From the IMG/VR virus record IMGVR_UViG_3300028584_001242: a stretch of DNA of 64,000 bases; one strand, 5' to 3'. Under the pieces are notes generated by a model that worked only from the letters and a program-made list of their open reading frames with translations, did no database searches and was not told the DNA's origin. This document shows, in pieces, positions 1 to 63,622 of this stretch (position 1 is the stretch's first letter; each line of letters begins with the position of its first letter). The position numbers and the translations under genes are program-made. This DNA comes from a virus (Duplodnaviria; Heunggongvirae; Uroviricota; Caudoviricetes).

Positions 1-1214
1 TTGAGTTTTCACCAACAGGTGAAATAATAACAGCCAATGAGAAGTTTTTAAATTTAATGGGATACTCCCTAAATGAAATAGTAGGGAAAAAACATTCTAT
101 ATTGTGTGACAAACTATATGCAAACAGTGCTGATTACAAAAAGTTTTGGAATAAGTTAGAAGCGGGTGAATATATATCTGATATGTTTAAAAGACTTGAT
201 TCAAAACAAAAAGAAATATGGCTAGAAGCTTCTTACAATCCTATATTTGATAATAACAACAAAGTAGTAAAAGTAATAAAATTTGCAAACGATATTACTA
301 GATATGTAGAGGAAAAAAATGAAGATAAAAGTAAATTAGATGCCCTTAATTCATCTATGGCTGTTATTGAGTTTACACCTGAAGGTATTATTTTAAATGC
401 AAACAATAACTTTTTATCAACAACTGGTTATACATTAAAAGAAATAGTGGGTAAACATCATAATATATTTTGCGAAAAAGCGTATAGTCTTCATTCAGAA
501 TATAAAAGGTTTTGGCAAGATTTAAAAAATGGGCAATTTTTTAATGGTCAATTTAAAAGATTAAATAAACAAGGTAATGATATATGGCTTGAAGCAACTT
601 ATAATCCAATAAGAGACGAAAATGGAAACGTAGTTAAAATTGTTAAATTTGCAAGTGACACCACAAAATTAGTTAACCAATTAGATGCTCAAAAGAAAAG
701 TGCAGAACTTGCATTTTCAATATCAAATAATAATAAAGAAACAGCACAAATCTCAGTAACTACAATAAATGAAACAAATAATGAAATGACAAACATTATA
801 AAATCAGTCAGTGCCACAGAGATTCATTTAAAGTCATTAGAAAAACAATCTGAAAAGATTAAAATGATATTAAATGCTATATATAAGATTGCAACACAAA
901 CTAATTTGTTAGCGTTAAATGCTGCAATTGAAGCCGCCAGAGCTGGAGATGCTGGAAGAGGTTTTGCAGTAGTGGCTAAGGAAGTAAAAGAATTATCAGG
1001 CAATACAAGTGACTTAGTTAAAAGTATTTCTGAAATAATAGAGGAAATTAATAAAGAAACAGAATGTGCGGTTAAACAAATGGAAAGTGTAACTCAGAAC
1101 ACAGAAAGAAGTGTAACATTAATGATTGAAGTCGAGCAGTTAGTGACTGAAATAAGTATCGGCTCTGATAAAATATTATCAGCTATTGCCCAATTATCAA
1201 AAGAGTTAAGTTAA
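1..1214 (+). CDS. methyl-accepting chemotaxis protein with tandem PAS domains (aerotaxis-like), 5'-partial
   Basis: The reading frame is open from nt 3, upstream of the listed ATG at 57. Repeated PAS blocks ([43 protein letters not shown]) precede a C-terminal MCP signalling motif [32 protein letters not shown] terminator follows. Confidence 0.8.
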
Positions 1215-2952: not shown

Positions 2953-3087
2953 TTACTCTGCGTCTTGATGGCGATTCCGGCGACGCTTCCGAAACTCGCT
3001 ATCTTTTTTGTGATACTTCGCTTGTTCGTTGTCTTTTTTCTTGCCACCGCGAAAACGTTCTACTGCGTCACCGAAAGAGCCTTGCAT
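2953..3087 (-). CDS. small highly basic peptide, paralog 1 (44 aa, MQGSFGDAVERFRGGKKKD...RRRNRHQDAE)
   Basis: Hand-translated. AGGAGA RBS. It lies directly behind promoter-leader module A. Two paralogs are at 9019..9153 and 49687..49818. Confidence 0.5.
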   Translation of the reverse strand: MQGSFGDAVERFRGGKKKDNEQAKYHKKDSEFRKRRRNRHQDAE

Positions 3088-3140
3088 TTTGTATCTCCTA
3101 ACATTTTAGTTTGTTTGTGTTGTTTCGTTTTGATGGGATA

Positions 3141-3169
3141 AGTATATCAAGAAGCGGTTTATCGGTCAA
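3141..3169 (-). promoter_or_regulatory. sigma70-type promoter module A: TTGACC-N17-TATACT plus conserved leader TATCCCATCAAAACGAAAC
   Basis: Minus strand: -35 box at plus 3164-3169, -10 box at plus 3141-3146, 17-nt spacer. Confidence 0.6.
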
Positions 3170-3336
3170 TCATTTTTTTTCAAAAACCTTACAAACAATT
3201 TAACCTACTGTTCGTTCATATTTAACATGATATTCAATCATCGAAGCCAACATGAAAAGAATCATGCACAAGCCGAAAGAGCCAACAAGCCATAATGGAA
3301 AAGCTTCAACTGAGAACCACTCAAAAGGTTTGCACA

Positions 3337-5666: not shown

Positions 5667-5743
5667 TGGTGGGACTTGCAGGACTTGAACCTGCGACCTA
5701 CCGATTATGAGTCGGTTGCTCTAACCAACTGAGCTAAAGTCCC
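5667..5743 (-). tRNA. tRNA with CAU anticodon (Ile2/LAU-type or elongator Met), 77 nt, CCA encoded
   Basis: Full cloverleaf: acceptor GGGACTT/AAGTCCC, D-stem GCTC/GAGC, anticodon stem ACCGA/TCGGT with loop CTCATAA, T-loop TTCAAGT. The anticodon loop and T-stem are close to E. coli ileX as recalled from memory. Confidence 0.85.
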
Positions 5744-6033: not shown

Positions 6034-6118
6034 TGGTGCCCGGTGCCAGACTCGAACTGGCACTCCTTGCGGAAAGGGATTTTAAGTCCCTCGTGTCTAC
6101 CAATTTCACCAACCGGGC
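6034..6118 (-). tRNA. tRNA-Leu(UAA), 85 nt with long variable arm, CCA encoded
   Basis: Acceptor GCCCGGT/ACCGGGC. Anticodon stem AGGGA/TCCCT with loop CTTAAAA. Variable arm TTCCGCAAGGAGTG. T-arm GCCAG-TTCGAGT-CTGGC. Confidence 0.85.
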
Positions 6119-6280
6119 TTAATATGATATGGCCTACTCTATTTATATCTGCACCGAGTAGTTTTCCATACTTACAAGCTATATTGGCAACCGAAGTTGT
6201 TGTTCCAAAACAAGCCACTTGTAAGAAGTGCTAGTTCATTGTTGCAAGATTTTGTTTCTCCGTTTCGTCTTGATGGGATA

Positions 6281-6309
6281 ATTATAGAGAAAATCGGTGT
6301 AGTGGTCAA
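6281..6309 (-). promoter_or_regulatory. consensus sigma70 promoter module B: TTGACC-N17-TATAAT plus leader TATCCCATCAAGACGAAAC, driving the tRNA-Leu/tRNA-CAU unit
   Basis: Minus strand: -35 box at plus 6304-6309, -10 box at plus 6281-6286. The roughly 140-nt leader contains a C(UUCG)G hairpin (plus 6188-6199). Confidence 0.65.
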
Positions 6310-6411
6310 GCACTTTTTTCTATTATTTTACCTTTATTTTCAATAAGTTGCGTAAAAAACAGTTGACAAATTAATGAAAAGACCTACACATGCAGGTCTT
6401 GGTAACGTTCA

Positions 6412-7332
6412 TTAATGGTAGACCAATTCACCGATAGATTTCTTGACAAATCGGGCATTTTTTGGGTTACCGTGAATATGAACACCGCCAATACCAGTAG
6501 AAGATCCGACAATGGATTCGGTAGCCGTCAATTTAATACTACCAACACCAGAGGTATTCAACGTGACATTCGCTGCTTTAAAATTAACTGCTTTGATACT
6601 ACCGACACCAGAAGTTTTTAAATCAAAGGTATCGCAAGAACCTTTGAGTGATGAACTACCAACAGCGGCATTAATCATTTTAATGAACTTTGAATGCTGA
6701 CCTGAGTAATCAAACGACCCTGTACCATCAATATTGAACGTTGCTTCATTAAAGCCACCAGTCAAAATACAATCACCTGAGCTTATTTTATTGATAGTAG
6801 CGGTATCAGCAGTCACATCGGCCTGAAAGGTTCCGGTTCCCAAGACATCTAATGACAGGGTTTCGAAAACACCCTTGAACGTGCAATCACCAGCACCTGA
6901 CTTGATGACTTTCATTGTTGACTGCTTGAACTCTTTGATATCTAACTTGCCAACACCTTTATAATCGATCAAATCCAATTGTGGGGCGGTAATAATTAAA
7001 TTCAATACAGGATTAATAAGGACATTTTTTTCAATTTTAACGTCCAACATGTTATTAACGGTACTCACCTTCAAAAAAGGAATCAATTTCTCATTGATTT
7101 CAAGGGTTACATCGTGAGTATCACCTTGCTGGATAATGGTGTTGAAGGGGCCAGAAATTTTAAGCGATGAAAATGCTTTAAAGTCAATAGGATGATTAAC
7201 CACTTGACCATAATCTTCTTTTTTCATACCTTTTGCATGGATACTGCCAGAAACATTAACACCATCAATAGTGATATTGATGTCACCATGCTCTTTTTTT
7301 GCAAAAAAGTTGTTGAGAAAGTCTTTAAGCAT
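6412..7332 (-). CDS. beta-repeat protein resembling DUF2807/DUF4097 (GIN-domain putative adhesin), 306 aa
   Basis: Reiterated SG.G/TG.G blocks (VSGSIHAKG, SGAGDCTFKG, SSGDCILTGG, TSGVGSIKAVNFKAANVTLNTSGVGSIKL, GIGGVHIHGNP). GAGGAT RBS. Confidence 0.5.
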   Translation of the reverse strand: MLKDFLNNFFAKKEHGDINITIDGVNVSGSIHAKGMKKEDYGQVVNHPIDFKAFSSLKISGPFNTIIQQGDTHDVTLEINEKLIPFLKVSTVNNMLDVKIEKNVLINPVLNLIITAPQLDLIDYKGVGKLDIKEFKQSTMKVIKSGAGDCTFKGVFETLSLDVLGTGTFQADVTADTATINKISSGDCILTGGFNEATFNIDGTGSFDYSGQHSKFIKMINAAVGSSSLKGSCDTFDLKTSGVGSIKAVNFKAANVTLNTSGVGSIKLTATESIVGSSTGIGGVHIHGNPKNARFVKKSIGELVYH

Positions 7333-9018: not shown

Positions 9019-9153
9019 TTACTCGGCGTCTTGATGACGATTACGGCGTTTTTTACGAAAATCGTTATCTTTTTTGTGATATTTTGCCTGTTCAGTGTCT
9101 TTTTTCTTGCCGCCACGAAAACGTTCTACTGCGTCACCGAAAGAACCTTGCAT
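9019..9153 (-). CDS. small highly basic peptide, paralog 2 (44 aa, MQGSFGDAVERFRGGKKKDTEQAKYHKKDNDFRKKRRNRHQDAE)
   Basis: Hand-translated. AAAGGAT RBS. It sits behind the promoter-leader module at 9195..9275. Confidence 0.5.
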   Translation of the reverse strand: MQGSFGDAVERFRGGKKKDTEQAKYHKKDNDFRKKRRNRHQDAE

Positions 9154-9194
9154 GTTTTGTATCCTTTTAACTGGTTATGATAAGTAAGCATTAA

Positions 9195-11898: not shown

Positions 11899-11917
11899 CG
11901 TTTGTATCTTAAATTAG

Positions 11918-11990
11918 GAGGACCGACTGGGACTCGAACCCAGAATTCATCCGGTTAAGGACGCTTGTTCCCGTTAAACACCACCGGCCC
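11918..11990 (-). tRNA. tRNA-like gene with a contracted 6-nt anticodon loop (possible non-canonical tRNA or pseudo-tRNA)
   Basis: Acceptor GGGCCGG/TCGGTCC with two G-U pairs, D-arm TGTT-TAACGGG-AACA, canonical T-arm CTGGG-TTCGAGT-CCCAG. The anticodon arm folds only as CGTCC-TTAACC-GGATG. It has its own consensus promoter and terminator. Confidence 0.5.
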
Positions 11991-13992: not shown

Positions 13993-14595
13993 TTATTCTG
14001 CTGGCACCAAACCTTTTGCAATTGCCATCGAAACGCCGATGATGGCACTGCAAGTGCGGATTTCACCACTTTCAATCATCTTCATGGTGTCTTCACGACT
14101 GATTTTGATAATTTGAATGTCTTCATCATCAATACCATGCGAACGGGTCAGATCAAAAGAAGAAGAGTCCACATAGGCGAAGTAGGTATGGTGCATTTCG
14201 TTGGAGATACCCGCACTGGTGTAGCCTTTGCACAGGTAGCGAATATCTTCCATCTTAATCAGCATATTGGTTTCTTCTTGGCCTTCACGCTGAGCCGCTA
14301 CCATCGGATCTTCTTTTGGATCGATGTGACCAGCTACAGGCTCAATAACCCAAGCGTCAGTTTCATCAGGATGTTTGAAAGCACCCATGCGGAATTGTTT
14401 AACAAAAATAAACTCATCAGTCGCTTTATCATACAGGGTCAGGCAAATAGCCGACGCCTTGCAAACAACAAAATGATTGATATCCTTGGTGCCACCAAAA
14501 ACACTTTCATACGAACCTTTCACTTGTTCAAGCCGAAGGAAAGAACGCTCAAAGTGAGAGATGATGTCAGTAGTGTTAAAAACTGGAATGGTCAT
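13993..14595 (-). CDS. Nudix hydrolase (ADP-ribose pyrophosphatase-like)
   Basis: Nudix box GHIDPKEDPMVAAQREGQEETN. AAGGAG RBS. Confidence 0.85.
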   Translation of the reverse strand: MTIPVFNTTDIISHFERSFLRLEQVKGSYESVFGGTKDINHFVVCKASAICLTLYDKATDEFIFVKQFRMGAFKHPDETDAWVIEPVAGHIDPKEDPMVAAQREGQEETNMLIKMEDIRYLCKGYTSAGISNEMHHTYFAYVDSSSFDLTRSHGIDDEDIQIIKISREDTMKMIESGEIRTCSAIIGVSMAIAKGLVPAE

Positions 14596-26815: not shown

Positions 26816-27937
26816 TTACTCGGGAATATCGACTTGTTTACGAGCAAACACCATGATAGCGGCTTGCTTGTAATCAATTTCATTGCCCGAATACTTACTG
26901 ATCAAGACATGCAGCAACAATGGAGCCACTTCTTTGGCTTTACGAGCGTAATCGCCACGTTCCAAACCTTTGTGTTCTTCATAGAAACTTTCAACGGTGC
27001 GAACAAGGTAGTGGTAGCTTTTACGGGCGTAGTCTTCTACTTCATCCAAGCGAGCCAGAATTTCAGCCAGTGGGAAGTTATCGCTGTGCGTCCGGTAATG
27101 ATACAGCGAACGAATTTCGTCCAAAATTTCGTGAAGAGTTGCTTCATAAATAACCTGACGCTCTTTCGACCGATCCTGAATATTGACCACTGCCGACATT
27201 TTCAGGTAAGGGATTGTTTTGACCTTATACATATCAGGGCCAAATTCAACTACATAACCCTCAATTTCAGGGTCATTAACGTTGAGTTCATTGATAGGGA
27301 TACGTTTCACCAAATGGGCCGCAATAACCGGGTATTTGGCAGCAAATTCAGCAGAACGAATATCGACATAAGCACCAGTGCTCATATCACGGGCTTTCAG
27401 GATATGAACAGAATAATCAGTGTATTCAATGAACACGCGGTTCTTGGGCGTGGTCAATTCCAAGTCAACCGAAACACCAGTGCGGGTCAACCGTTCAATA
27501 TCAGCATGCAACTCAGGGCTGATAGATTTTTCAACAAGGTCATAATTGGCAAAAGTTGGCTTCTTTTTGCTCTTGTAGTAAAGCGTATCGTTAACTGGCG
27601 AGATATAGCTGGTCAGCAGGGAACCATCTGGCTTCAAGTAAGCATGATCCGCTTCTTCGGGCTTGATCTTCTGAGTTTCTGGAGTTTCACCGAGCGAGAA
27701 GAATTTCTGCATTGGCAATGCCACCAGCACTGGCTCATCACCGCCCATGTAGAACATGACCCCACGGCAATCTTTAGCACCCGGAAGTTTGAATTCAGAG
27801 TGCTTTGGAATGTCATAGTTGAAGACACGGTAAGTCCCGCCGTCTACTGCTGAGGTTTCATCCCCGTATTTAAAAGACCCCGGATTAGTAACCAACAGGT
27901 TCATCAGTTGGGCATACAGTTCTTGTTGATAAGTCAT
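26816..27937 (-). CDS. RNA ligase, Rnl1 family (T4 gene 63-like), about 373 aa
   Basis: Motif I KPDGSLL. The N-terminal block YRVFNYDIP...CRGVMFYMGGDEP...QKFFSLGE is colinear with T4 Rnl1 as recalled from memory. Confidence 0.8.
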   Translation of the reverse strand: MTYQQELYAQLMNLLVTNPGSFKYGDETSAVDGGTYRVFNYDIPKHSEFKLPGAKDCRGVMFYMGGDEPVLVALPMQKFFSLGETPETQKIKPEEADHAYLKPDGSLLTSYISPVNDTLYYKSKKKPTFANYDLVEKSISPELHADIERLTRTGVSVDLELTTPKNRVFIEYTDYSVHILKARDMSTGAYVDIRSAEFAAKYPVIAAHLVKRIPINELNVNDPEIEGYVVEFGPDMYKVKTIPYLKMSAVVNIQDRSKERQVIYEATLHEILDEIRSLYHYRTHSDNFPLAEILARLDEVEDYARKSYHYLVRTVESFYEEHKGLERGDYARKAKEVAPLLLHVLISKYSGNEIDYKQAAIMVFARKQVDIPE

Positions 27938-28906: not shown

Positions 28907-30028
28907 TTAAACGGGCGGGGACAAGTCGCCAAGCTCAATTTGTTCCAACGACCAATCCACCAGATGGTTTTTAGAGTAGTGATACAAGTAGTCGTTTTTG
29001 TGACCACGAATCGCCCCCATAACAAAACCAAAGTGTTTATGGCCTTTGAGCTGAATTGCAGCAGCTTTCACGTCAACACCTTTGAATTCAGCAGCAATAT
29101 TATCAACTTCTTTCGACAACGCTTCAATCGAAGCTTTGATAGCGTCATTGATTCGATAAATCTCACTCAAATCAGCCGTTGGCGAATTCAGCGACAAATA
29201 AGCGATGTAATCATCAAGTTTTTCTTCAACCACCAACCGAGCAATATCACGCTCCCGAACAAAGCTAACCGCATGATGGAGGTTCATATACCATTTGGTT
29301 TTGATTTTGATCATGTTACCGTTAACGAATTGAATAACATAGCCTTCAATCCCTTCAACAGTGTTCAGCGACTTCAACAGGGAAGCCAAATCAAATTCTT
29401 CACCAAACAGAGGCTTGTTAACAGGAATATCAAACAACAACGCCAGTTGGTCTTTTTCAGCAGGCATTAAGTAATCGCCTGTGATGTTGTGACGAACATG
29501 AAGCAATGTCATGTTGTCTTCGTCATAACGCAAAACGATACGATGTTTTGGCGAAGTAAATTCAAAAATAGGGGTCAGTTGGGCCTGAGAGCAATATTTA
29601 GTGAACTCGTAGTATTTCTGGTTGCGAGACACAAAGCCTTCTGCCGAAACAGCCACATCCGATTTGAACGACTTCTTGGATTTAGCAAAGAATTCGCCTT
29701 TGAACAGCCCTGTGGTAATCATGGAGCCATCCATTTTATCAAACCCGGCTACCATCGTGCTCCAATCCAAAACGGCTGGCTGGACTTCTGCCCGCTCTGC
29801 CAAGTTAAAGAATTTGTGCAATGGACGCGACAGGATTTTACCATTGTCGTCAAAAGTAATACCGCGAGCTTCTTTTTCAACCGGAGTGTTGAAAGAGTCA
29901 CCGTTGCTGATGTTGTAGCAAACGATATCGGCACCGTTATCCTGTTTATTAACAGAAATATAGGCACGGTCTTTGATATGAGGAATCATATCATCAAGGG
30001 TTTCAATACGCGGGAAGATGCTGGACAT
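28907..30028 (-). CDS. RNA ligase, Rnl1 family, second paralog, 373 aa
   Basis: Motif I KMDGSMI, block ARGITFDDNGKILSRPLHKFFNLAE. Same architecture as 26816..27937. Confidence 0.75.
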   Translation of the reverse strand: MSSIFPRIETLDDMIPHIKDRAYISVNKQDNGADIVCYNISNGDSFNTPVEKEARGITFDDNGKILSRPLHKFFNLAERAEVQPAVLDWSTMVAGFDKMDGSMITTGLFKGEFFAKSKKSFKSDVAVSAEGFVSRNQKYYEFTKYCSQAQLTPIFEFTSPKHRIVLRYDEDNMTLLHVRHNITGDYLMPAEKDQLALLFDIPVNKPLFGEEFDLASLLKSLNTVEGIEGYVIQFVNGNMIKIKTKWYMNLHHAVSFVRERDIARLVVEEKLDDYIAYLSLNSPTADLSEIYRINDAIKASIEALSKEVDNIAAEFKGVDVKAAAIQLKGHKHFGFVMGAIRGHKNDYLYHYSKNHLVDWSLEQIELGDLSPPV

Positions 30029-31568: not shown

Positions 31569-32417
31569 TTACTGCTTTGGTTGAACTACGGGTTGCGGGA
31601 CTGTTACCCCTTGCGGGAGCGAACCACCCACTACGACCAGCATATTAACATTGTCTTTCTTTTTGACCACTTCAACAATTTCTTTCTGAATTTCGATTTC
31701 TCGACTTTTCAGATATTGTTCCGGTGACATGTTCATTTTAGTCATGTATTCATTGTCAGCGAGGGCTTTGTTGGTTTCAGCCTGCTTACGCTTTGTCTCG
31801 GCGTCTGCACGGGAATCTTCAGTCAAAGCTCGTTGAATTTGTGCTTCTGTTCGTGCCGTTTCAGCCAGCACTTCATCAGGAGGCATGATAGCACCGATAG
31901 TCACCGCAAGAATACGAACCGGAATGCCTTTTGCAACCACAATGTCAACCATTCGCTTGTAAACAGCATCTTCACCAGAGTCAGTAACTTCTTGTTTCGT
32001 GGTCAACTCTTTAACTGTATGTTGTCGAGCAAAGTCTCGCAGCATGTTTTGAAAGTCTTTTTTCAGGTTGTTTTCATACATGGAATCACCAAACTTCTCA
32101 TGATAGATATAAGCCTGTTCAGGGATGAGTTCATAACGAACAATCGCTTTAAAGTCTACCGGAGTCGAGTTAATGGTTGCCAAATCATTAAACGATTCTT
32201 CTTTTTGAGCAGGTTTAATGTCGTAGATATGCATTGTTGAAGTTGGTGCAATATAGTAACGATCACCACCTTTATACACTTCTTTATCAACACCACCTGT
32301 GGTAAAAATAGGGTGTTTTTCCAGAACGCCAACGAAACCAGCATCTACGGATTCAGAACACCCACTGAGGGCAACTGATGCCAGAAGAACAAGAGAAGCA
32401 AAAATCTTTTTAATCAT
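31569..32417 (-). CDS. SPFH/band-7 family lipoprotein, 282 aa
   Basis: Lipobox LSGC. Coiled-coil region TEAQIQRALTEDSRADAETKRKQAE typical of prohibitin/HflK-like proteins. Confidence 0.65.
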   Translation of the reverse strand: MIKKIFASLVLLASVALSGCSESVDAGFVGVLEKHPIFTTGGVDKEVYKGGDRYYIAPTSTMHIYDIKPAQKEESFNDLATINSTPVDFKAIVRYELIPEQAYIYHEKFGDSMYENNLKKDFQNMLRDFARQHTVKELTTKQEVTDSGEDAVYKRMVDIVVAKGIPVRILAVTIGAIMPPDEVLAETARTEAQIQRALTEDSRADAETKRKQAETNKALADNEYMTKMNMSPEQYLKSREIEIQKEIVEVVKKKDNVNMLVVVGGSLPQGVTVPQPVVQPKQ

Positions 32418-40473: not shown

Positions 40474-40938
40474 TCAATCTTGAACATAGTTTTTGAAGGG
40501 TTTTAGCCTATCTTTTTGGTAATGTTTGAACTTCCCAATAGTAATATGGCCTTGGTCTGTCCCCAACACGTTATAGTATTCACGAATTTTAAAAAACTCG
40601 GCTGAATAACAGTTTATCCAAACATGGGAATCATTCCAGAACAATTCATGGGTGTAATGCAGTTCAACAGGTTGTTGGTCAAGCCAACCCCACGGCTTAG
40701 AAGTATCTGTATTGGTATACCCTTTCAACACCGAGCAATGAACATCCCAGTTAGGCTTATCCAAATCTATACCATACCGCTGATAAAACTGATGGCGATA
40801 GTAAGCCGCGATATCCGGTTCAATCGTGATAACAGCCCAATGTTCAATGTTTTTCTTCATGGTGCCACGGTCGGGATCGTAAACAATAGTCCCTTCCGTT
40901 TCAAACTGAAGACAACGGTGTCTAAGTTGTAAGTTCAT
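40474..40938 (-). CDS. putative 2H-phosphoesterase-family protein (two HxS/T motifs), 154 aa
   Basis: Motifs VHCSVLKG and GHITIGK lie about 70 aa apart. Confidence 0.45.
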   Translation of the reverse strand: MNLQLRHRCLQFETEGTIVYDPDRGTMKKNIEHWAVITIEPDIAAYYRHQFYQRYGIDLDKPNWDVHCSVLKGYTNTDTSKPWGWLDQQPVELHYTHELFWNDSHVWINCYSAEFFKIREYYNVLGTDQGHITIGKFKHYQKDRLKPFKNYVQD

Positions 40939-43692: not shown

Positions 43693-43712
43693 AAGTGAGA
43701 CAATTATAACAC
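43693..43712 (-). promoter_or_regulatory. promoter ACAGTGTTATAATTGTCTCAC, duplicated at 44368..44387
   Basis: An identical block of about 22 nt lies upstream of two neighbouring genes. Confidence 0.45.
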
Positions 43713-43809
43713 TGTTACACATCATAAACAAGTTTTTTTCTAAAAAAACTAATAATTTCGCCAAGCAGTTTCAACAACTTTAAACAAGCTGGTGATAGTT
43801 TTATTTCAT

Positions 43810-44325: not shown

Positions 44326-44367
44326 GAGAACACCTCTAAGGATTTTATTGGCGAAAGCTAAACAAGT

Positions 44368-44387
44368 GAGACAATTATAACACTGTC
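44368..44387 (-). promoter_or_regulatory. promoter ACAGTGTTATAATTGTCTCAC (second copy)
   Basis: See 43693..43712. Confidence 0.45.
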
Positions 44388-44421
44388 TCACTTTCTTAAC
44401 AAGTGTTTTTAAAAGCCTTTG

Positions 44422-49597: not shown

Positions 49598-49670
49598 GGC
49601 TGTATGATGGGACTCGAACCCACGACTACCGTTTTTCGACGGAGTTCTGCCGACTGAACTACAAACAGCC
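49598..49670 (-). tRNA. tRNA-like gene with a contracted 6-nt anticodon loop, CCA not encoded
   Basis: D-arm GTTC-AGTCGGCA-GAAC (A14, G18/G19), T-arm GTGGG-TTCGAGT-CCCAT, 6/7-bp acceptor. The anticodon arm folds only as CCGT-CGAAAA-ACGG. It lies immediately downstream of basic-peptide gene 3. Confidence 0.45.
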
Positions 49671-49686
49671 AAAACTGTAAAATTCT

Positions 49687-49818
49687 TTATTCGTTAATGT
49701 GACGATCACGACGCTTCTTTCGCCAGTTCTTGTCTTGCTCATGAGTTTTTGCTTTTTCTGTGTCACGTTTTTTACCACCACGGAAACGTTCTGTTGCGTC
49801 ACCAAATGAACCTTGCAT
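49687..49818 (-). CDS. small highly basic peptide, paralog 3 (43 aa, MQGSFGDATERFRGGKKRDTEKAKTHEQDKNWRKKRRDRHINE)
   Basis: In-frame internal ATG of listed ORF 49687..49869. A TGTATAAT -10 box lies about 30 nt upstream. Confidence 0.5.
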   Translation of the reverse strand: MQGSFGDATERFRGGKKRDTEKAKTHEQDKNWRKKRRDRHINE

Positions 49819-49928
49819 AATATAAATACCTTTGTTTATTAGACTTTTATTATACATCAAAAAGCACATTAAGTAAATAGCAAAAATGATATTTTTTAAA
49901 AACTTTTTAATGGTCTAAAAATATCCCA

Positions 49929-50906: not shown

Positions 50907-51494
50907 CTACTTCACAAAAAAGAACTCTTCATAGATTTTGTATTCGGCAATTGACTCTTTAATATCTTCAAGTCCACGGTGTTTTTCTTGCTTCTTAACC
51001 ATCATGCCCACTTCTGGTTTCACCCGCCATACGATTTCCTTGATGGTGCTTACGTCAATAATACGGTAATGCAAGATGCTGGCAAAGGTTGGCATTTGGG
51101 CCATGATAAAGTTGCGATCCAGCGAAACACTGTTACCACAAATAGGGCTAGAGCCGGGAGCAATGTTGAATTGAGCGATATACGCCAAAATCATTTTTTC
51201 TGCTTCGGTCAACGAAAAAGGCGAAGCCTCAACACGATCCCACAACCCACTGGTGATGTGCATGTTACGAACGTAATCATTAGCCAGTGCTTTGGCTTCT
51301 TCAACGTCATGATGAATAACCACTTCAAAGCCTTCATCAATGATATTGAATTTCGAATCGGTAATGTGAATACCGATTTCAAGGATTTTGTGATACTGAG
51401 CACCCGACAACTTGTCAGCAATATCCAAGCCAGTTGTTTCAAGATCCACCCAAATAAGGAGATCTTTCCGTAGTTCAATAGCCGTCATAGTCAT
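50907..51494 (-). CDS. orn: oligoribonuclease (DEDDh 3'-5' exoribonuclease)
   Basis: Motifs LIWVDLETTGLD, PICGNSVSLDRNF, HYRIIDVSTIKE and H.GLEDIKESI are colinear with E. coli Orn as recalled from memory. AGGAGTGA RBS. Confidence 0.85.
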   Translation of the reverse strand: MTMTAIELRKDLLIWVDLETTGLDIADKLSGAQYHKILEIGIHITDSKFNIIDEGFEVVIHHDVEEAKALANDYVRNMHITSGLWDRVEASPFSLTEAEKMILAYIAQFNIAPGSSPICGNSVSLDRNFIMAQMPTFASILHYRIIDVSTIKEIVWRVKPEVGMMVKKQEKHRGLEDIKESIAEYKIYEEFFFVK

Positions 51495-54946: not shown

Positions 54947-56188
54947 TCAAACAGCCATCATTTTAAAAACTTCAATCTGTCGAGCGGTTAGCTCATCAGG
55001 GGTAGTAGCAATCGTCTCTGTAATAACTGTTCTGATTTCATTTAAAACAGTATTGTAAACGAAATCAATATTGTTAGTAAAGTATTGAACCAACTTAGTG
55101 TCAACATCGTTTTTATTACCAATATAACTTTTAAATTGATATTGGTAACCATTTTCGCTTTCGCCATCAACACACTGTTCATAGAGAGAGTCAATATTAT
55201 CGTTTGGCTTTAATTGATTACCAAGAGTAAGTAGCAACGATCCACCAAATAACGCAAAATGACAATATTCTGAATTAATTCCAGATGAAGGAGCTAACTC
55301 ATGTTTTCCATAATTTTTGAAGCTGATTGAAACGTCATGTGTCGTTGAACGTAAATCAGCATAAAAAGACATAAGGTTAATAAACTGCTTAAATTTCGTT
55401 TCAGAATCTTTATCTTTCGAAAGCTGCTTGATGATTTTAGGCAAAAGTGCTGTCATGTGATGAGGTATTTTCACATGTTTATGCGGCTCTTTAACCTCTT
55501 TGTTGTGTTCCAAAAGATCATCAACGTGAATAACTAATTCAGCACATGCTTTTGCAATTAAATCGTCTTTATGAATATAGTTAAAATCAAATTTTTCAAA
55601 ATGTTCAACAAGCAAATCCTGAGTTGATTTATTCATGAACGTAATAACTTCTTCTGAATGTTCAGTGTATCCATCAAAACCAAGAATATTTAATACCTTT
55701 GGGTTTACAAGAGACAGTGCTTCATTAAGTTTTTGTTCAAAGTCATCACTCAATGAATAGTCAACACTCACAGTATTCCCGTATAGCCAAGAAACCCGAA
55801 TCTCAGTGGCTGTTAATTTAATTCGAAGAGATGGTAGACAATCACCAAAAATAGTAAAGTCAATATTTTGTTCTTTTTCATAGTTAACTTTTAAACATTT
55901 TTGCTTACGATCATCAGGAATAGCATAAACGCCATAGAGAAATGATCGAATATTCTCTATTTTCATCATGGTTTCAGCAGTTAAATCAAAATGTTTTTCA
56001 AATAAGTTAACATCATCATGTGAAACAAGATATATAAAAGAGTTCTTCAGCGTAGCAAATAAACATTGGTTTTCATCTTCCAAAGAAAGTCCGCTGTGTG
56101 TGTTTGGCGATAGGATCGTCATATTTTTAGAGTCGGCAAACGCCAAAATAGATTTCTGAAGCTCATAAAAACGGTCAGTTAAATTCAA
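54947..56188 (-). CDS. hypothetical protein, 413 aa, TTG start, very AT-rich; tandem paralog of 56215..57441
   Basis: GAGGAA RBS 5 nt before TTG. Shared C-terminal block NIDFVYNTVLNEIRTVI...FKMMAV. Confidence 0.55.
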   Translation of the reverse strand: MNLTDRFYELQKSILAFADSKNMTILSPNTHSGLSLEDENQCLFATLKNSFIYLVSHDDVNLFEKHFDLTAETMMKIENIRSFLYGVYAIPDDRKQKCLKVNYEKEQNIDFTIFGDCLPSLRIKLTATEIRVSWLYGNTVSVDYSLSDDFEQKLNEALSLVNPKVLNILGFDGYTEHSEEVITFMNKSTQDLLVEHFEKFDFNYIHKDDLIAKACAELVIHVDDLLEHNKEVKEPHKHVKIPHHMTALLPKIIKQLSKDKDSETKFKQFINLMSFYADLRSTTHDVSISFKNYGKHELAPSSGINSEYCHFALFGGSLLLTLGNQLKPNDNIDSLYEQCVDGESENGYQYQFKSYIGNKNDVDTKLVQYFTNNIDFVYNTVLNEIRTVITETIATTPDELTARQIEVFKMMAV

Positions 56189-56214: not shown

Positions 56215-57441
56215 TTAAAATACAGCCATGTTATAGACTTCAAGATCTTTGAAGCTAATACCATCATCATCATCTTTATGCAACACTTTCTTAACAATAT
56301 TGCAAAGGTCAGTTAAAACTTCATTATAAACGTAATCAATATCATTGGTAACATATTCTTTATACTCATAGGTATCTATATTTTTTAAATAGATAAATGA
56401 AAAAAACTTATTGTCATCATTAGGCTGGACATACACAGCATCATCCTTTGCATTTGGCATGATGTTGTGGCCTATTTTAATGATTAATGTATCACTAATA
56501 TTAAGCCGATAAAAAGATCTGTCACTTGACTGGCCCTTAAAGAAATCTCGTTTTTTCACAGGCATGAAAGATACAGAAAATTTCGTTTTTTTATGGGTGA
56601 TTAAATTATAAAGAACAATAAGACTAATCAACTGATCAATTTTTGATTTAATTCCATCTTTTTTAACAATATGTTGAGCCATTGAAGATATCATGGTTGT
56701 CAAATTGTTTGGAATGTGAAGATTCGAAAAGGTGTCATTATTTTTAGCATTCAAAGCTTTAAGCACAACATTGACATTCAACTTTAAATCAGTGCAAACC
56801 AAATGAACAAGTTCAAGGGGCTGTAAATAGTTAAAAATCGGATTAACACCTTTTTCGAAAAACATTTCATCTGCAGTCTTTTTAATAAAATCAACAACCT
56901 CTGGTGAGTTTTGGTCTGTTGATTTAAATCCATTATAATTCAAAAAAGAGGGGATAACTTGATGGGTAGCCCTATTAACAATACTATCAATATCATCATA
57001 ACAATCAATCAGGTGTGACTCACTTTTAAATTTTTGATCAGCAACAGTCACATAAAGATGGGAGTTGTTGATAACAATCCTAAAACTAGAAAGACCACTA
57101 CCAATAATAGAGAATTCAATCTCTTCTGGTTTTATTTTTACCTTATGCAATGCATGTGGGATTATCATTTCTTCTGGATCAATGTTTGAAATTAATGTCC
57201 GAGTATTTTCAATATTTTGAAGAGTCTCTGGTGAGAGTTTTAGAAAGTCATAGATCACCCTAACATCTTTATGAGCAAGTAAATAAAGACTGACTGGGCC
57301 AATATGCGAATAATTAAATTGATTGTCACTCTCCAACTTAACATTGCGGTTTAAAAATATGTCCAATGGTGCCAAGTTTAAAAGTTCAGCCGACTGTAAG
57401 ACTAGTTTTTTTAAGTCACCTGCGAGTGTATCAATGTCCAA
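56215..57441 (-). CDS. hypothetical protein, about 408 aa, probable TTG start, very AT-rich; tandem paralog
   Basis: No in-frame ATG near the 5' end. AGAGGAT plus 7 nt then TTG (LDIDTLAG...). C-terminus DIDYVYNEVLTDLCNIV...VYNMAVF. Confidence 0.5.
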   Translation of the reverse strand: MDIDTLAGDLKKLVLQSAELLNLAPLDIFLNRNVKLESDNQFNYSHIGPVSLYLLAHKDVRVIYDFLKLSPETLQNIENTRTLISNIDPEEMIIPHALHKVKIKPEEIEFSIIGSGLSSFRIVINNSHLYVTVADQKFKSESHLIDCYDDIDSIVNRATHQVIPSFLNYNGFKSTDQNSPEVVDFIKKTADEMFFEKGVNPIFNYLQPLELVHLVCTDLKLNVNVVLKALNAKNNDTFSNLHIPNNLTTMISSMAQHIVKKDGIKSKIDQLISLIVLYNLITHKKTKFSVSFMPVKKRDFFKGQSSDRSFYRLNISDTLIIKIGHNIMPNAKDDAVYVQPNDDNKFFSFIYLKNIDTYEYKEYVTNDIDYVYNEVLTDLCNIVKKVLHKDDDDGISFKDLEVYNMAVF

Positions 57442-57559
57442 AAAAAAATCCTCTAAATGTTTGGGGCATGATATCACAAATTCAAAATAAATGACAGGTC
57501 TATTTTAATACAGGAACAAAAAAAAGGGCCGAAGCCCTTTTCTATGTAGTTCGCAATTA

Positions 57560-59814: not shown

Positions 59815-59962
59815 GTGTATATTCCTTTTCTTTGTTTATGGTGCCAATTATACACAAAAATAAGATTTTAGACAACTCTTTTCTAGACTGTCAAAATAAA
59901 AAAGACAATTTTTAGAAATAAAAAGCCCCACATCTGTGAGGCTCATTTTAAAGCATTTTGGA

Positions 59963-60409
59963 TCAAGTGATTACATAATCACCTTTGACCTTGAAAGCCG
60001 TCTCAATCGGCTCAAAAGCGGCCTTCTTTTCGATGACAACAGCTTCTGGCACGTTGTGGGTGTTGGCGAAATCGTTTTCCATTTCGAAAATTCGAATATC
60101 AATACCCAGTTCTTTGGCGAAAGAAACCAGCGAATCCATTTCAACCACTTTGGTAAAAGTGTTACTCACTACTACCGAATCACCATCCAGCAAAGCTTGA
60201 ACCGCTTTCTTGACACACTCGTCTTTGGCAACCTGATGGAAAGCGAAGTCGAATTTGTAAACGCCATCTTGACCAACAAAGAAACTATCGTTTTCAAAAT
60301 GCTTGTAGCCGAAAGGAACAAAAGAACCCGCGAAAGTGGATTTGCCACTGCCCGAGTGACCACGTACCAAAACCAGTTCTTGATTGGTTGCTACTTTGAT
60401 AGTTTGCAT
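59963..60409 (-). CDS. P-loop NTPase, polynucleotide 5'-kinase-like (kinase-only module), 148 aa
   Basis: Walker A motif VRGHSGSGKSTFA followed by ENDSFFVGQDG, which resembles the T4 Pnk kinase-domain N-terminus as recalled from memory. No phosphatase domain. Confidence 0.6.
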   Translation of the reverse strand: MQTIKVATNQELVLVRGHSGSGKSTFAGSFVPFGYKHFENDSFFVGQDGVYKFDFAFHQVAKDECVKKAVQALLDGDSVVVSNTFTKVVEMDSLVSFAKELGIDIRIFEMENDFANTHNVPEAVVIEKKAAFEPIETAFKVKGDYVIT

Positions 60410-60435
60410 GATTAAGAGAGCCTTTTCAAAAGTGG

Positions 60436-60918
60436 TTATAGGTCAACTGTTAAGAATTTTACCAACTTTTCGGTCGCAAGTCTAGCAAAATATGCCTGAA
60501 TTGCTGTTCTTTCTTCCAAATGGGTGCATGACATAAAGAAGCTGTGCAATTTGCGATCTTGGCGTGAGTAGATGGCGAAATAAGCATGGACCATTCCTTT
60601 CGAGTTGTCTTTATCCACATAACCCGTGGTCGCAACACCATAATCAGTATCAAAAAGCTCAACAACGCCTTTCGCCATTTCAATGGCTGTTTGTTCACTG
60701 ACGCAATCGCATGTTTCAGCGTTCGCTCGATCAACATTCAAAAACTTGACTTTCATGTCGATGTTGTAGGCAGTAATACCACCTGCGAAATACTTTGAAG
60801 ATCCTGCAACTGCGGACATATGAGCCTGCAGATAGCCACTGGTGAGGCTTTCAGCAACCGAGATGGTTTCACCTCGTTTCAACATAAATTCTTTAATTAC
60901 TGATGCCAATTCTTGCAT
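60436..60918 (-). CDS. CinA C-terminal domain protein / NMN deamidase PncC-like, 160 aa
   Basis: Motifs TISVAESLTSGYLQAHMSAVAGSSKYFAGGITAYNIDMK and AKGV..LF.TDYGVATTG. AGGAG RBS. Confidence 0.8.
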   Translation of the reverse strand: MQELASVIKEFMLKRGETISVAESLTSGYLQAHMSAVAGSSKYFAGGITAYNIDMKVKFLNVDRANAETCDCVSEQTAIEMAKGVVELFDTDYGVATTGYVDKDNSKGMVHAYFAIYSRQDRKLHSFFMSCTHLEERTAIQAYFARLATEKLVKFLTVDL

Positions 60919-60977
60919 TTTATACTCCTAATGTGTTCGACAATTATAGATCAAAATGTTGTTTTCGTCAATGGCGA

Positions 60978-61793
60978 CTACATTTTAATTGCGTCCATAA
61001 GTTGAACCGTAGACCACAAATCAATGCCATCCAGTTGAATATCATCATCATAATATCGGTCAAATTGCTTTTTGAAATTGGAATAAAAGACCCGATGCCT
61101 ATACCGTTCATGAATGAGTTTATAGATATCAGCTTGTGCCTGTTCACCTTCAAAAACAAACGTTTCATTCTCTGGGTGTTGAACTTCTTTTGATTCTTTC
61201 GGTACCGAGAGGTAGAACCTTTGATTCAGCTCGTAAAGCATAATATCAAAGGGCTTATAACGAGTAGGCACTGTAAATTTTGCTTGAACAAAAGAACCTT
61301 CACGGCATACACCCAATTCAAAATTCAAATGCATACTCAGCATTCGTTTACGTTTCTCATGCTCTTGAATGCGAAGAAGCCCATAATGCTTGACTGCAAA
61401 ATCATAGCAAGACTTCATACCTGAAAAAAATGAATCTTTCATCGTCAAATAACTTTTAAACTGATGATCACCTTCCGAAAATATGCAGCATTCAATCCCC
61501 GAGGTAATCAACACATCTAGAACATTTTGAATGTTCGAAAAATCTGTTTTTTGAATGTCTTTGAAAAGCTGAATAGCAGGCAAATAAAGTTCAGTGCGAT
61601 TCAGATAAGCCACAGGGGTGATGGCACTGAATTCATTCTCAAGACAAGGATGACTAACGCGAGTTGAGTTATAGAACATGGTGTCAGCATTAATATTACG
61701 CATACGACGAAGCTCTACCACAGCGGCAGAGCTATTCAAGTCTTCACCAAACGCACGATAGGCTTCCGTAAGTGATTTATGATTTGCAATCAT
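60978..61793 (-). CDS. hypothetical protein, 271 aa
   Basis: Listed ORF. Confidence 0.55.
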   Translation of the reverse strand: MIANHKSLTEAYRAFGEDLNSSAAVVELRRMRNINADTMFYNSTRVSHPCLENEFSAITPVAYLNRTELYLPAIQLFKDIQKTDFSNIQNVLDVLITSGIECCIFSEGDHQFKSYLTMKDSFFSGMKSCYDFAVKHYGLLRIQEHEKRKRMLSMHLNFELGVCREGSFVQAKFTVPTRYKPFDIMLYELNQRFYLSVPKESKEVQHPENETFVFEGEQAQADIYKLIHERYRHRVFYSNFKKQFDRYYDDDIQLDGIDLWSTVQLMDAIKM

Positions 61794-61794
61794 A

Positions 61795-61995
61795 TCAGCT
61801 CAAAGACTCTGGAAGATTCACTAATTCTTTCAATTCTGATGTGAAAACATGATGTTCACGACCATCAACAACAATGAGAGACAAGTGAGTATCAAGGGGT
61901 TGGCGACTTGAAATAGACATGACATTCACATCGAAATTAGCATCCTTGAAATTGTCAGGATCAACGGTTCGTAGAAAATTAGGTTTTAAACGCAT
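61795..61995 (-). CDS. hypothetical protein, 66 aa
   Basis: AGGAG RBS. Confidence 0.4.
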   Translation of the reverse strand: MRLKPNFLRTVDPDNFKDANFDVNVMSISSRQPLDTHLSLIVVDGREHHVFTSELKELVNLPESLS

Positions 61996-62010
61996 AGTAA
62001 AGATTAACTC

Positions 62011-62169
62011 CTATTTTTTAAGTTTGGAACGGAGTTCACTGACCATTGAATTAACCCGAGTCAGATACTCAGGATTTTCCGAAAGCCAAATAGCATGGGC
62101 CGGATCGTTGAGTTGTTCTTGCAAAGATTTCAACAAGGACACGGCTTCAGCATGTGTAGAAATGGGCAT
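62011..62169 (-). CDS. hypothetical protein, 52 aa
   Basis: Hand-translated MPISTHAEAVSLLKSLQEQLNDPAHAIWLSENPEYL... Weak RBS. Confidence 0.3.
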   Translation of the reverse strand: MPISTHAEAVSLLKSLQEQLNDPAHAIWLSENPEYLTRVNSMVSELRSKLKK

Positions 62170-62175
62170 CAATGA

Positions 62176-62292
62176 TTACTCGAAATAATTTTGGCTGAAT
62201 TTGTAGCTACTGTCTTGGACAGGGGTGAGAGCTTTTTTGACCGACTTACAGGTTTTAACAAGACGAACAATCGTTGCGTTAAGATTTTTCAT
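62176..62292 (-). CDS. small basic peptide, about 38 aa (MKNLNATIVRLVKTCKSVKK...); alternative longer ORF to 62394
   Basis: GAGGTG RBS before the internal ATG. Confidence 0.3.
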   Translation of the reverse strand: MKNLNATIVRLVKTCKSVKKALTPVQDSSYKFSQNYFE

Positions 62293-62408
62293 GTTACACC
62301 TCATCGTTGGTTTGTGAGGTATATTATACCAAACAATGCGGAAAGTGTAAAGAAAAAAGCCCAAAACCAAGATGGAATTAGGCTGTAAAAACATCCTTTT
62401 ATCGGATT

Positions 62409-62930
62409 TTAATAGCTTGGTGTAGGAGTCATATCAACCACACGCAATTCTTCCCGATGAACAGCGTTGTAATTGATACGGTCATGCCTCACCCAACCAT
62501 CAGCCATTGGTAGCCCTTTAAAAATAACAGGCACTGCAACAGCGATATAGTGACGTTCCATCCAGAATCCAAGACTAATACGTTCTGCTTGTGCCTTAGC
62601 CTCTTCTGCTGTGGCATACAAACCCACTTGCCCCGCCACAAAGCTATCGGGCTGAATGTGGTTAGGTCGCTCTACGTTCATAAAACGAACAATACACCCT
62701 TCTGGAACAGTGTATCCTTCTGGGATTGTATAAACCGTTTCATCATAATCCGCCGTCCACTCAACTTGAATGCAATCATGCATCAGCCGCCCTTCTTTCA
62801 TGCCATTAATAGCCATATTAATAGACTTTTCTGCTGTCTCATGCAGATGGGGCTGACTAATAGCATAAACATCGCCACCCATATAGGCTGGATGATAGAT
62901 GTGGACAAAGCGGACTGTTTTTTCGGTCAT
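62409..62930 (-). CDS. hypothetical protein, 173 aa
   Basis: GAGG RBS. Confidence 0.55.
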   Translation of the reverse strand: MTEKTVRFVHIYHPAYMGGDVYAISQPHLHETAEKSINMAINGMKEGRLMHDCIQVEWTADYDETVYTIPEGYTVPEGCIVRFMNVERPNHIQPDSFVAGQVGLYATAEEAKAQAERISLGFWMERHYIAVAVPVIFKGLPMADGWVRHDRINYNAVHREELRVVDMTPTPSY

Positions 62931-62980
62931 GGCGAAAACCTCAATTTTGATGAAGCATTATACCACAAAAGCTTCTGGAA

Positions 62981-63388
62981 TTAAAGTCCTTTGACCTTAA
63001 CGACATGACTGTCAAAATAAATTTCTGTGCCAACGAGCGATTGAAGGTTTTCGACCAACTCTGGTGACGAAGATTTCAACAGGGTGATGTGCGGGAAATG
63101 CGGCAAGTCCTCAATAGCCCCTTTGGATTTGAAATGAGCATTCAGCACCGTGCTCCAACCACAATCCGACAACTCAGCAATAACATAAACACCATAAGGG
63201 GTTAAACGTTCAGTGATTTTGGAGATAACTGCCGACTTATAAACAATATCAATGTTGTCAGAGGGCTTGATCGTGGCTGTGGTGTCGAAGCAAGTGGTCA
63301 TGTGGAGTTTACCTTTTTCCACACCAAGATCTTCGAAAAGTTTATTCGAACCGTGAGAGAGATAAGCGGCTGAGTAGGCGAATGCCAT
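62981..63388 (-). CDS. 2H-phosphoesterase superfamily protein (LigT/cyclic-phosphodiesterase or Acb1-like), about 135 aa
   Basis: Two H-x-T-x motifs (LHMTTCF and PHITLL) about 70 aa apart. GAGGAA RBS before MAFAYSAAYL. Confidence 0.55.
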   Translation of the reverse strand: MAFAYSAAYLSHGSNKLFEDLGVEKGKLHMTTCFDTTATIKPSDNIDIVYKSAVISKITERLTPYGVYVIAELSDCGWSTVLNAHFKSKGAIEDLPHFPHITLLKSSSPELVENLQSLVGTEIYFDSHVVKVKGL

Positions 63389-63622
63389 AAATAAATTCCT
63401 CAATACATGTATGGATTAGATTAAAGCTATTATACAACAAATGGAAAAAACTCACAATTGACTTCTCAAATTTTAGGCACAAAAAACCCCTTAGAGCGTC
63501 CAATAAGGGGTAAGGTGTTTGAAGCATAATGGATACACCGTCAATGATTAACATCATCATGATAGGATGTAACGCTGTTGAGACTATGTTAATGCAAACA
63601 ACAAGAATTGTCAACGCATTTT

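Follow-up and report, generated by a model that had tools for sequence, protein, structure and literature searches.

Two ways in which phages counter host defence are established: they repair tRNAs, and they destroy the nucleotides that serve as immune signals. Jumbo phages carry Rnl1 and Rnl2 ligases, polynucleotide kinases, phosphoesterases of the 2H, HAD or calcineurin kind and tRNAs against tRNA-cleaving defence, and the idea of a repair kit made of ligase, kinase, 2H enzyme and tRNAs has already been published for them (Iyer et al., 2021; PMC7824862). Acb1 (T4 gene 57B, also described from Erwinia phage FBB1 and Burkholderia phage BCSR5) is a 2H nuclease directed against CBASS, an antiphage signalling system based on cyclic oligonucleotides. 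Genes of both kinds are found together in the DNA discussed here, a stretch of 64,000 nucleotides (the window) from the virus record IMGVR_UViG_3300028584_001242 (Caudoviricetes), apparently one very large uncultured phage. A preliminary description of this stretch, centred on positions 59,963 to 63,388, had read a kinase-only protein, two 2H proteins, two Rnl1 ligases and phage tRNAs as a modular counter-defence kit.

All the open reading frames (ORFs) named in that description lie on the minus strand where it placed them, and its list of parts is correct. The interpretation was over-integrated: each part fits a known counter-defence role, and what the phage carries is a set of separate accessory genes, all of known kinds, and no single new repair machine. 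Taken as a whole, the set is on balance probably best explained as independent accessory genes: a stand-alone 5'-OH kinase, an Acb1-like 2H protein, an orphan 2H protein and a CinA gene co-transcribed with the kinase. What the data show are folds, motifs, family memberships, gene neighbourhoods and the layout of transcription units, whereas the substrates and any joint action of the parts are inferred.

Two sets of observations speak against the modular kit. First, the kinase, ligase and 2H genes belong to different transcription units that lie up to 36 kb apart and have separate promoters. Second, the kinase and 2H families do not travel together. For 80 retrieved IMG/VR loci, each with a kinase homologue of 29-46% identity, local searches covered the ORFs up to 5 kb away from it. 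A metallophosphoesterase was present in 29 of these loci and a Rnl1-type ligase in 18; the two occurred together in 14, and at least one of them, often directly adjacent to the kinase, in 33. Neither of the two 2H families, nor CinA, was found in any of the 80. The usual healing partner of the kinase family is thus a metallophosphoesterase, not a 2H enzyme. Conversely, the 2H loci examined had no kinase, ligase or phosphoesterase genes near the 2H gene.

The kinase, its partner gene and the ligases

The kinase-like protein (148 aa; 59963-60409, minus strand) is a stand-alone P-loop protein. It carries VRGHSGSGKST and matches Pfam AAA_33 (PF13671) with 37.5 bits at a gathering cut-off of 27 (3.7e-9). 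It is a single domain and covers only positions 14-140, the N-terminal half, of the 282-position phrog_2071 profile (1e-21); phrog_505 "polynucleotide kinase" (2.3e-7) and TIGR01663 PNK-3'Pase (6.6e-7) match as well, and searches with Pfam and PHROG found no fused 3'-phosphatase domain. Its homologues form a large single-domain family of 125-150 aa. A profile built from 32 members and searched against the PDB matches Clostridium thermocellum Pnkp (2e-7), T4 Pnk (3.2e-7) and mammalian PNKP (4.7e-7), then PSTK (2.5e-6), Pnkp1 (9.8e-6) and nicotinamide riboside kinase (0.08). These matches, together with the single domain, bear out the first impression of a protein that resembles the kinase half of T4 Pnk and lacks the phosphatase half. 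Identity as a deoxynucleoside monophosphate or shikimate kinase, which the preliminary description had named as the case that would undo its assignment, is excluded: the profile matches polynucleotide kinases at about 1e-7, and neither of those two kinases is among its PDB matches.

The Walker A motif GxxxxGK(S/T) is present as G17-H-S-G20-S-G-K23-S-T, and G17, G20, S21, G22 and K23 are invariant in the 32 homologues. D41, the putative general base, is also invariant; the profile alignment pairs it with D35 of T4 Pnk, which we take to be the general base of that enzyme. Conservation across the 32 diverse members is strong for Walker A, E39, D41 and an N-x-H-N-V-P motif.

The strongest evidence on function comes from the neighbourhood counts given above, and the best reading of the family is as the 5'-kinase of a heal-and-seal triad, because homologues sit in cassettes of Rnl1 ligase, phosphoesterase and kinase. 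In one rV5-like phage an RNA ligase gene is followed by those for a polynucleotide kinase (136 aa) and a phosphoesterase (184 aa) and then by tRNAs. In a 184-kb uncultured phage (L016) the Rnl1, Metallophos and kinase genes overlap as an operon, and on a 338-kb contig (L015) the kinase and Rnl1 cluster with a phosphatase-like and an RF-1 gene. That so widespread a family of stand-alone kinases is habitually found with Rnl1 and a metallophosphoesterase supplies a usable functional label for hundreds of genes now called "AAA ATPase". In the window, the kinase would use ATP to phosphorylate the 5'-OH ends that arise when host anticodon nucleases, or metal-independent RNases of another kind, cut RNA, and the two Rnl1 ligases, encoded 30 kb away, could then seal the break. 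A 2',3'-cyclic phosphate or 3'-phosphate would first have to be removed, presumably as a metallophosphoesterase does in related phages; the enzyme for this step is not encoded in the window and probably lies elsewhere in the genome.

Several searches bear on that absence. In the Pfam sweep of 96 window ORFs there was no match to the HAD, Metallophos or HD families at E<=1e-4 and none to RtcB or Tpt1/KptA. No phosphatase PHROG was found among the window ORFs, and a hidden Markov model (HMM) built from kinase-linked phosphoesterases had no match among them (best E 0.038). The search for a missing 3'-phosphatase that the preliminary description had proposed thus detected none in 64 kb, and with all three sweeps (Pfam, PHROG and the custom HMM) negative, a phosphatase hidden in the window is rejected.

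The two ligases and the tRNAs are as first described. Rnl1-type paralog A (373 aa; 26816-27937, minus strand; KPDGS, EGYV, KVKT) and paralog B (373 aa; 28907-30028, minus strand; KMDGS, EGYV, KIKT) share 28% identity, and each has retained the nucleotidyl-transferase motifs I, IV and V (KxDGS, EGYV, KxKT). They match Pfam RNA_lig_T4_1 (best 7.3e-27) and TIGR02308 (1.8e-42 for A, 3.1e-43 for B). They are not strict orthologues of T4 RnlA, because their scores (146 and 148 bits) are below the NCBIfam equivalog cut-off of 242. Rfam supports three tRNA genes, all on the minus strand: tRNA-Met (CAT) at 5670-5743 (78.2 bits), tRNA-Leu (TAA) at 6037-6118 (57.8 bits), and an atypical tRNA-like gene at 49599-49668 (42.9 bits, above threshold) for which ARAGORN reports a two-base "anticodon". 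A fourth ARAGORN call at 11917-11990 (minus strand) has no Rfam support.

The only tight local partner of the window kinase was overlooked in the preliminary description. It is a CinA/PncC-family amidohydrolase gene (160 aa; 60436-60918, minus strand) directly upstream. A sigma-70-like promoter, TTGACG-17-TATAAT (60943-60971, minus strand; a consensus match only), stands ahead of the pair, and an intrinsic-terminator-like hairpin with a T-run (59923-59944, minus strand) lies 19 nt past the kinase stop codon. With one promoter, a gap of 26 nt and one terminator, CinA and kinase look like a bicistron of which CinA is the first gene, and they appear to be co-transcribed. The CinA protein matches Pfam CinA (1.1e-30) and passes the TIGR00199 PncC_domain cut-off (97.3 bits; cut-off 68.9). 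Its nearest solved relative is the nicotinamide mononucleotide (NMN) deamidase domain of Thermus thermophilus CinA (1.2e-12), with which its ESLT-x-G and Y-x(4)-K stretches align.

This gene pair is kept in one lineage of very large phages and is almost absent from other phages. A 773,483-bp ENA metagenome contig (k141_708015; locus L001) is collinear with this region of the window at about 77% nucleotide identity: both have, in order, 2H, a 173-aa ORF, a short ORF, a 271-aa ORF, CinA, kinase, an 84-aa ORF and Y00F, so that CinA adjoins the kinase in both. In another relative (L009), whose kinase is 59% identical, CinA lies 3 kb from the kinase. Elsewhere, CinA is practically absent from curated phage genomes, and when IMG/VR was scanned by pattern, a single contig had it.

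The two 2H proteins

The Acb1-like 2H phosphodiesterase gene (135 aa; 62981-63388, minus strand) is in a transcription unit of its own. A sigma-70-like promoter predicted by consensus, TTGTGA-17-TATAAT (63429-63457, minus strand), stands ahead of it, and the unit runs on into a 173-aa ORF at 62409-62930. The start is placed at the ATG at 63388, not at the TTG at 63403, because all homologues are about 135 aa long. Searches of Pfam, PHROG, NCBIfam and the PDB gave no match to either of the ORFs of 173 and 271 aa that stand between CinA and the 2H gene.

The protein was first picked out by its motifs H29-M-T-T and H100-I-T-L, and its identity as a 2H protein is confirmed by those motifs and by its fold. 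HMTT and HITL are invariant in 16 homologues, and both histidines are invariant in 40 more distant ones. The HxT/HxT tetrad of Acb1 (PF23474) is present as H29-M-T31 and H100-I-T102. An AlphaFold2 model with a predicted local distance difference test (pLDDT) score of 92.7 has a compact 2H fold.

The family is small, with 45 cluster representatives among 1.84 billion. Pfam Acb1 matches 16 of 40 members (best 3e-19): P0148, a relative 53% identical to the window protein, scores 35.2 bits, while homologues 72% identical to it reach 24.4-25.9 bits, against a threshold of 27. A profile of the family finds Acb1 in the PDB at E 0.5-1.3 only, and single-sequence PDB searches with the 135-aa protein and with the second 2H protein of the window (154 aa) gave no match. 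The 135-aa protein is nearer to Acb1 than to cyclic phosphodiesterases, and neither 2H protein has a family match to LigT/ThpR (PF02834, PF13563) or has LigT/ThpR as its closest fold. The preliminary description had left a choice between LigT or cyclic phosphodiesterase activity and Acb1-type activity for both proteins; at the level of family and fold the first option fails, and the second holds for one of the two, the 135-aa protein, which models as Acb1-like. It may accordingly be placed, by prediction, in the Acb1 clade of phosphodiesterases, with a substrate that is perhaps not the one of canonical Acb1. As in Acb1, its His-x-Thr pair would cut a nucleotide immune signal at a 3'-5' bond, by way of a 2',3'-cyclic intermediate.

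The 154-aa protein (40474-40938, minus strand) is a divergent member of the 2H fold in a jumbo-phage family (phrog_12204). It has two Hx(T/S) motifs on that fold, H67-C-S-V and H131-I-T-I, and was rightly named as a 2H protein from the outset. By sequence the 135-aa and 154-aa families are unrelated, and a common origin is rejected on that ground (hhalign probability 0.9%). The 154-aa protein is best described as an orphan 2H enzyme with a putative phosphodiester substrate.

Separate genes, one pathway or another job

Several findings weigh against reading these parts as active counter-defence enzymes of the kinds named. In the kinase, residues R38, D85 and R126 of T4 Pnk, presumably its acceptor and ATP contacts, have no equivalents (the aligned residues are F44, N83 and A115), and the family has a V-S-N-T motif with no acidic residue where known polynucleotide kinases have S-D-T or D-x-T. 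Kinase activity and substrate are therefore not assured. For the same reasons (the absent T4 residues and the S-N-T motif) the protein is, judged by its sequence, a member of a distinct clade of polynucleotide-kinase-like proteins and no T4 Pnk orthologue. The window kinase itself is 30 kb from the ligases and lacks a phosphoesterase partner, so its task may now be a different one, shared with CinA. Only 64 kb of DNA is visible, and the genome is probably much larger. As for the 135-aa protein, it has no Pfam Acb1 match at E<=1. Acb1 has base-stacking residues Y12, W74, F107 and W147 and a C-terminal lid of residues 145-152 (PMC9117128); in the window protein R61 and L95 align with W74 and F107 (by a HMMER alignment to FBB1 Acb1 that is of low identity and soft), and the chain ends 35 residues past the second histidine, with no lid and no aromatics in the tail. 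Because the base-stacking residues differ, the target is perhaps not 3'3'-cyclic GMP-AMP, and an Acb1-like enzyme without these residues and the lid could act on a signal beyond the known CBASS nucleotides. One family member (P0162) carries a fused RF-1 (peptidyl-tRNA hydrolase) domain and another (L003, 7030-7866) directly follows a PTH2 gene, which are hints of a role in RNA, tRNA or translation rescue for some members. In other neighbourhoods of the family (L099-L101), RecT and DUF3268 were the only matches.

Among the alternatives, the one that survives best is that of the preliminary description, a split pathway like that of the tRNA ligase Trl1. In this scheme a 2H protein opens the 2',3'-cyclic phosphate, the kinase acts on the 5'-OH and Rnl1 seals, so that the 2H protein stands in for the phosphatase of Pnk. 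The three Trl1 activities (Rnl1-like ligase, P-loop kinase and 2H) are all represented in the window, where the sweeps found no other phosphatase; relatives of the 135-aa protein have the PTH2 and RF-1 links just described; and a review of jumbo phages proposes exactly such a role for phage 2H enzymes (PMC7824862). The scheme is nevertheless unlikely. Kinase loci contain metallophosphoesterases and never, within 5 kb, a 2H gene, the 2H loci are without kinase and ligase genes, and the transcription units are separate. The 135-aa protein is on the Acb1 side of the 2H enzymes, and the Tpt1/KptA that would remove the 2'-phosphate from the junction was not found in the window. Acb1-type chemistry leaves a 3'-phosphate (PMC9117128), a product that would still block Rnl1.

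Other alternatives start from the CinA-kinase bicistron. It could be a new module in which PncC replaces the metallophosphoesterase, or in which the kinase has been recruited to pyridine-nucleotide salvage against defence that depletes nicotinamide adenine dinucleotide (NAD); separately from this, the Acb1-like enzyme may target a non-CBASS signal. We hold this to be rather improbable; if true, a PncC-type enzyme next to an RNA-end kinase would mean new end-processing chemistry.

More doubtful still is a pyridine-nucleotide module that has nothing to do with RNA ends. The kinase would then act on nicotinamide riboside or a related nucleoside, and PncC would deamidate NMN to nicotinic acid mononucleotide, which would feed host NAD synthesis or remove NMN. 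The shared promoter and terminator, the 26-nt gap and the proximity of the two genes in L001 and L009 are consistent with such a module, as are the PncC_domain score and the NMN deamidase domain found as the nearest solved relative, and jumbo-phage NAD modules are known to include P-loop nucleoside kinases (PMC7824862). The profile, however, favours polynucleotide kinases (about 1e-7) over nicotinamide riboside kinase, which it reaches at 0.08 and over positions 7-75 of 135 only. Homologues of the kinase recur with Rnl1 and phosphoesterase but with CinA in none of the 80 viral loci, and the Nampt and Nmnat families were not found in the window. A NUDIX gene was considered as a member of a CinA-linked NAD cluster and rejected, being 46 kb away.

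The least likely alternative is that the kinase-like protein has no part in RNA repair here. It could be inactive, or a P-loop protein put to another use, for instance as a DNA-end kinase or a regulator that binds ATP, in a set of genes that share no pathway. This reading can point to the absent T4 Pnk arginines and to the SDT/DxT motif, which lacks its acidic residue, to a bacterial homologue in Vibrio kyushuensis without repair-gene neighbours and to the 47 of 80 viral loci with neither a ligase nor a phosphoesterase nearby, but the conservation of Walker A, E39, D41 and N-x-H-N-V-P in 32 diverse members argues for an active enzyme, and a linkage to ligase or phosphoesterase of 41%, judged without a measured background rate, looks high for an unrelated protein.

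The setting of the window and its comparison with known systems

Independent accessory genes, the explanation preferred here, agree with the layout of the window as a whole. It has a G+C content of 38%, and about 91 of 113 candidate ORFs are on the minus strand. In addition to the two RNA_lig_T4_1 matches, the sweep of 96 ORFs with Pfam gave one match each to CinA, AAA_33, NUDIX, RNase_T, Band_7, DUF2807, GNAT and HNH and one protein with methyl-accepting chemotaxis protein (MCP) and PAS domains; a PHROG sweep was consistent with it. Intergenic repeats fall into families of promoter-like TTGAC-17-TATA[A/C]T sequences (minus strand) and near-identical GC-hairpin terminators (for example at 3122-3179, 6262-6319, 43693-43739 and 44364-44410), and their recurrence suggests numerous short independent transcription units. 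Numerous small ORFs that share an orientation, and an MCP gene of bacterial appearance, had raised the idea of an integron cassette array. This was ruled out because attC-like repeats are absent; those that do lie between the genes resemble sigma-70 promoters and terminators.

Megablast and blastn against 50,697 phage records gave zero nucleotide matches to the window. Beyond the collinear 773-kb contig, remoter relatives are found on other large contigs (604 kb and 1.54 Mb). One IMG/VR contig (UViG_3300024308_000302, 290 kb) is 100% identical over 2,925 bp to the 1.54-Mb JGI contig. The viral call thus seems to cover a piece of the longer contig, which may be a chimera, a provirus or an element of very large size. 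The large contigs of the relatives, the Rnl1 ligases, the neighbour of the T4 Y00F family and the PHROG matches point to a very large phage with T4-like accessory genes, and the promoter and terminator repeats also back a phage nature. The window would then be a portion of the accessory (early-type) region of such a phage, with dozens of small minus-strand genes, many of which would have their own sigma-70-type promoter and hairpin terminator; the parts discussed above would be independent genes among them.

Other features of the window touch on none of these genes directly. At the window edge (57-1214, plus strand) lies the PAS and methyl-accepting-chemotaxis protein (MCPsignal 3.4e-32, PAS_3 6.7e-27, phrog_8572 1.5e-32), an unusual phage cargo; alternatively, it could be the sign of a boundary with host DNA. 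Three copies of a 147-nt direct repeat (2953-3099, 9019-9165 and 49684-49830) are present, the second and third being 85% and 63% identical to the first; the third overlaps a 60-aa ORF (49687-49869) that has homologues in the related loci L097 and L101. A Band_7/SPFH protein (31569-32417, minus strand; 4.4e-16; phrog_200 "lipoprotein") is encoded 1.5 kb from the Rnl1 pair. Two adjoining minus-strand ORFs, of 413 aa (54947-56188) and 420 aa (56215-57477), have no Pfam or PHROG match and look like paralogs because both match one ORF of the 773-kb contig (5.5e-32 and 2.5e-109). Scattered among the small ORFs are three minus-strand genes, those for the NUDIX hydrolase (13993-14595; 9.6e-10), an RNase_T/DEDD exonuclease (50907-51494; 5.3e-19) and a DUF2807 adhesin-head-like protein (6412-7332; 1.2e-30).

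How the parts relate to described systems can be set out one by one. The window kinase shares its P-loop family with T4 Pnk (PseT), C. thermocellum Pnkp and mammalian PNKP, and Walker A and the general-base aspartate align with theirs. T4 Pnk and PNKP have a fused HAD 3'-phosphatase and bacterial Pnkp has a metallophosphoesterase, whereas the window kinase has neither. Closer to it is the kinase of rV5-like phages (for example Escherichia phage CarlMeissner bas48_0218), which is about 38% identical and belongs to the same single-domain type of 125-150 aa with the same motifs. In the cassettes of rV5-like and uncultured phages, genes for an RNA ligase and a phosphoesterase flank that of the kinase; in the window it is next to CinA, and the ligases are 30 kb off. 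CinA/PncC has 0 occurrences in the survey of jumbo phages by Iyer et al. (2021; PMC7824862), in contrast to its place beside the kinase here. The Acb1-like protein, lidless and 135 aa long, differs from Acb1, which has a Trp lid and is longer (we take the T4 protein to be 152 aa). Finally, the fungal and plant tRNA ligase Trl1 combines a ligase, a kinase and a 2H cyclic phosphodiesterase, and the same three classes are present in the window genome. In Trl1 these domains are joined, whereas in the window the genes are separate and unlinked, the 2H proteins are not of the cyclic phosphodiesterase/LigT subfamily and no Tpt1 was found.

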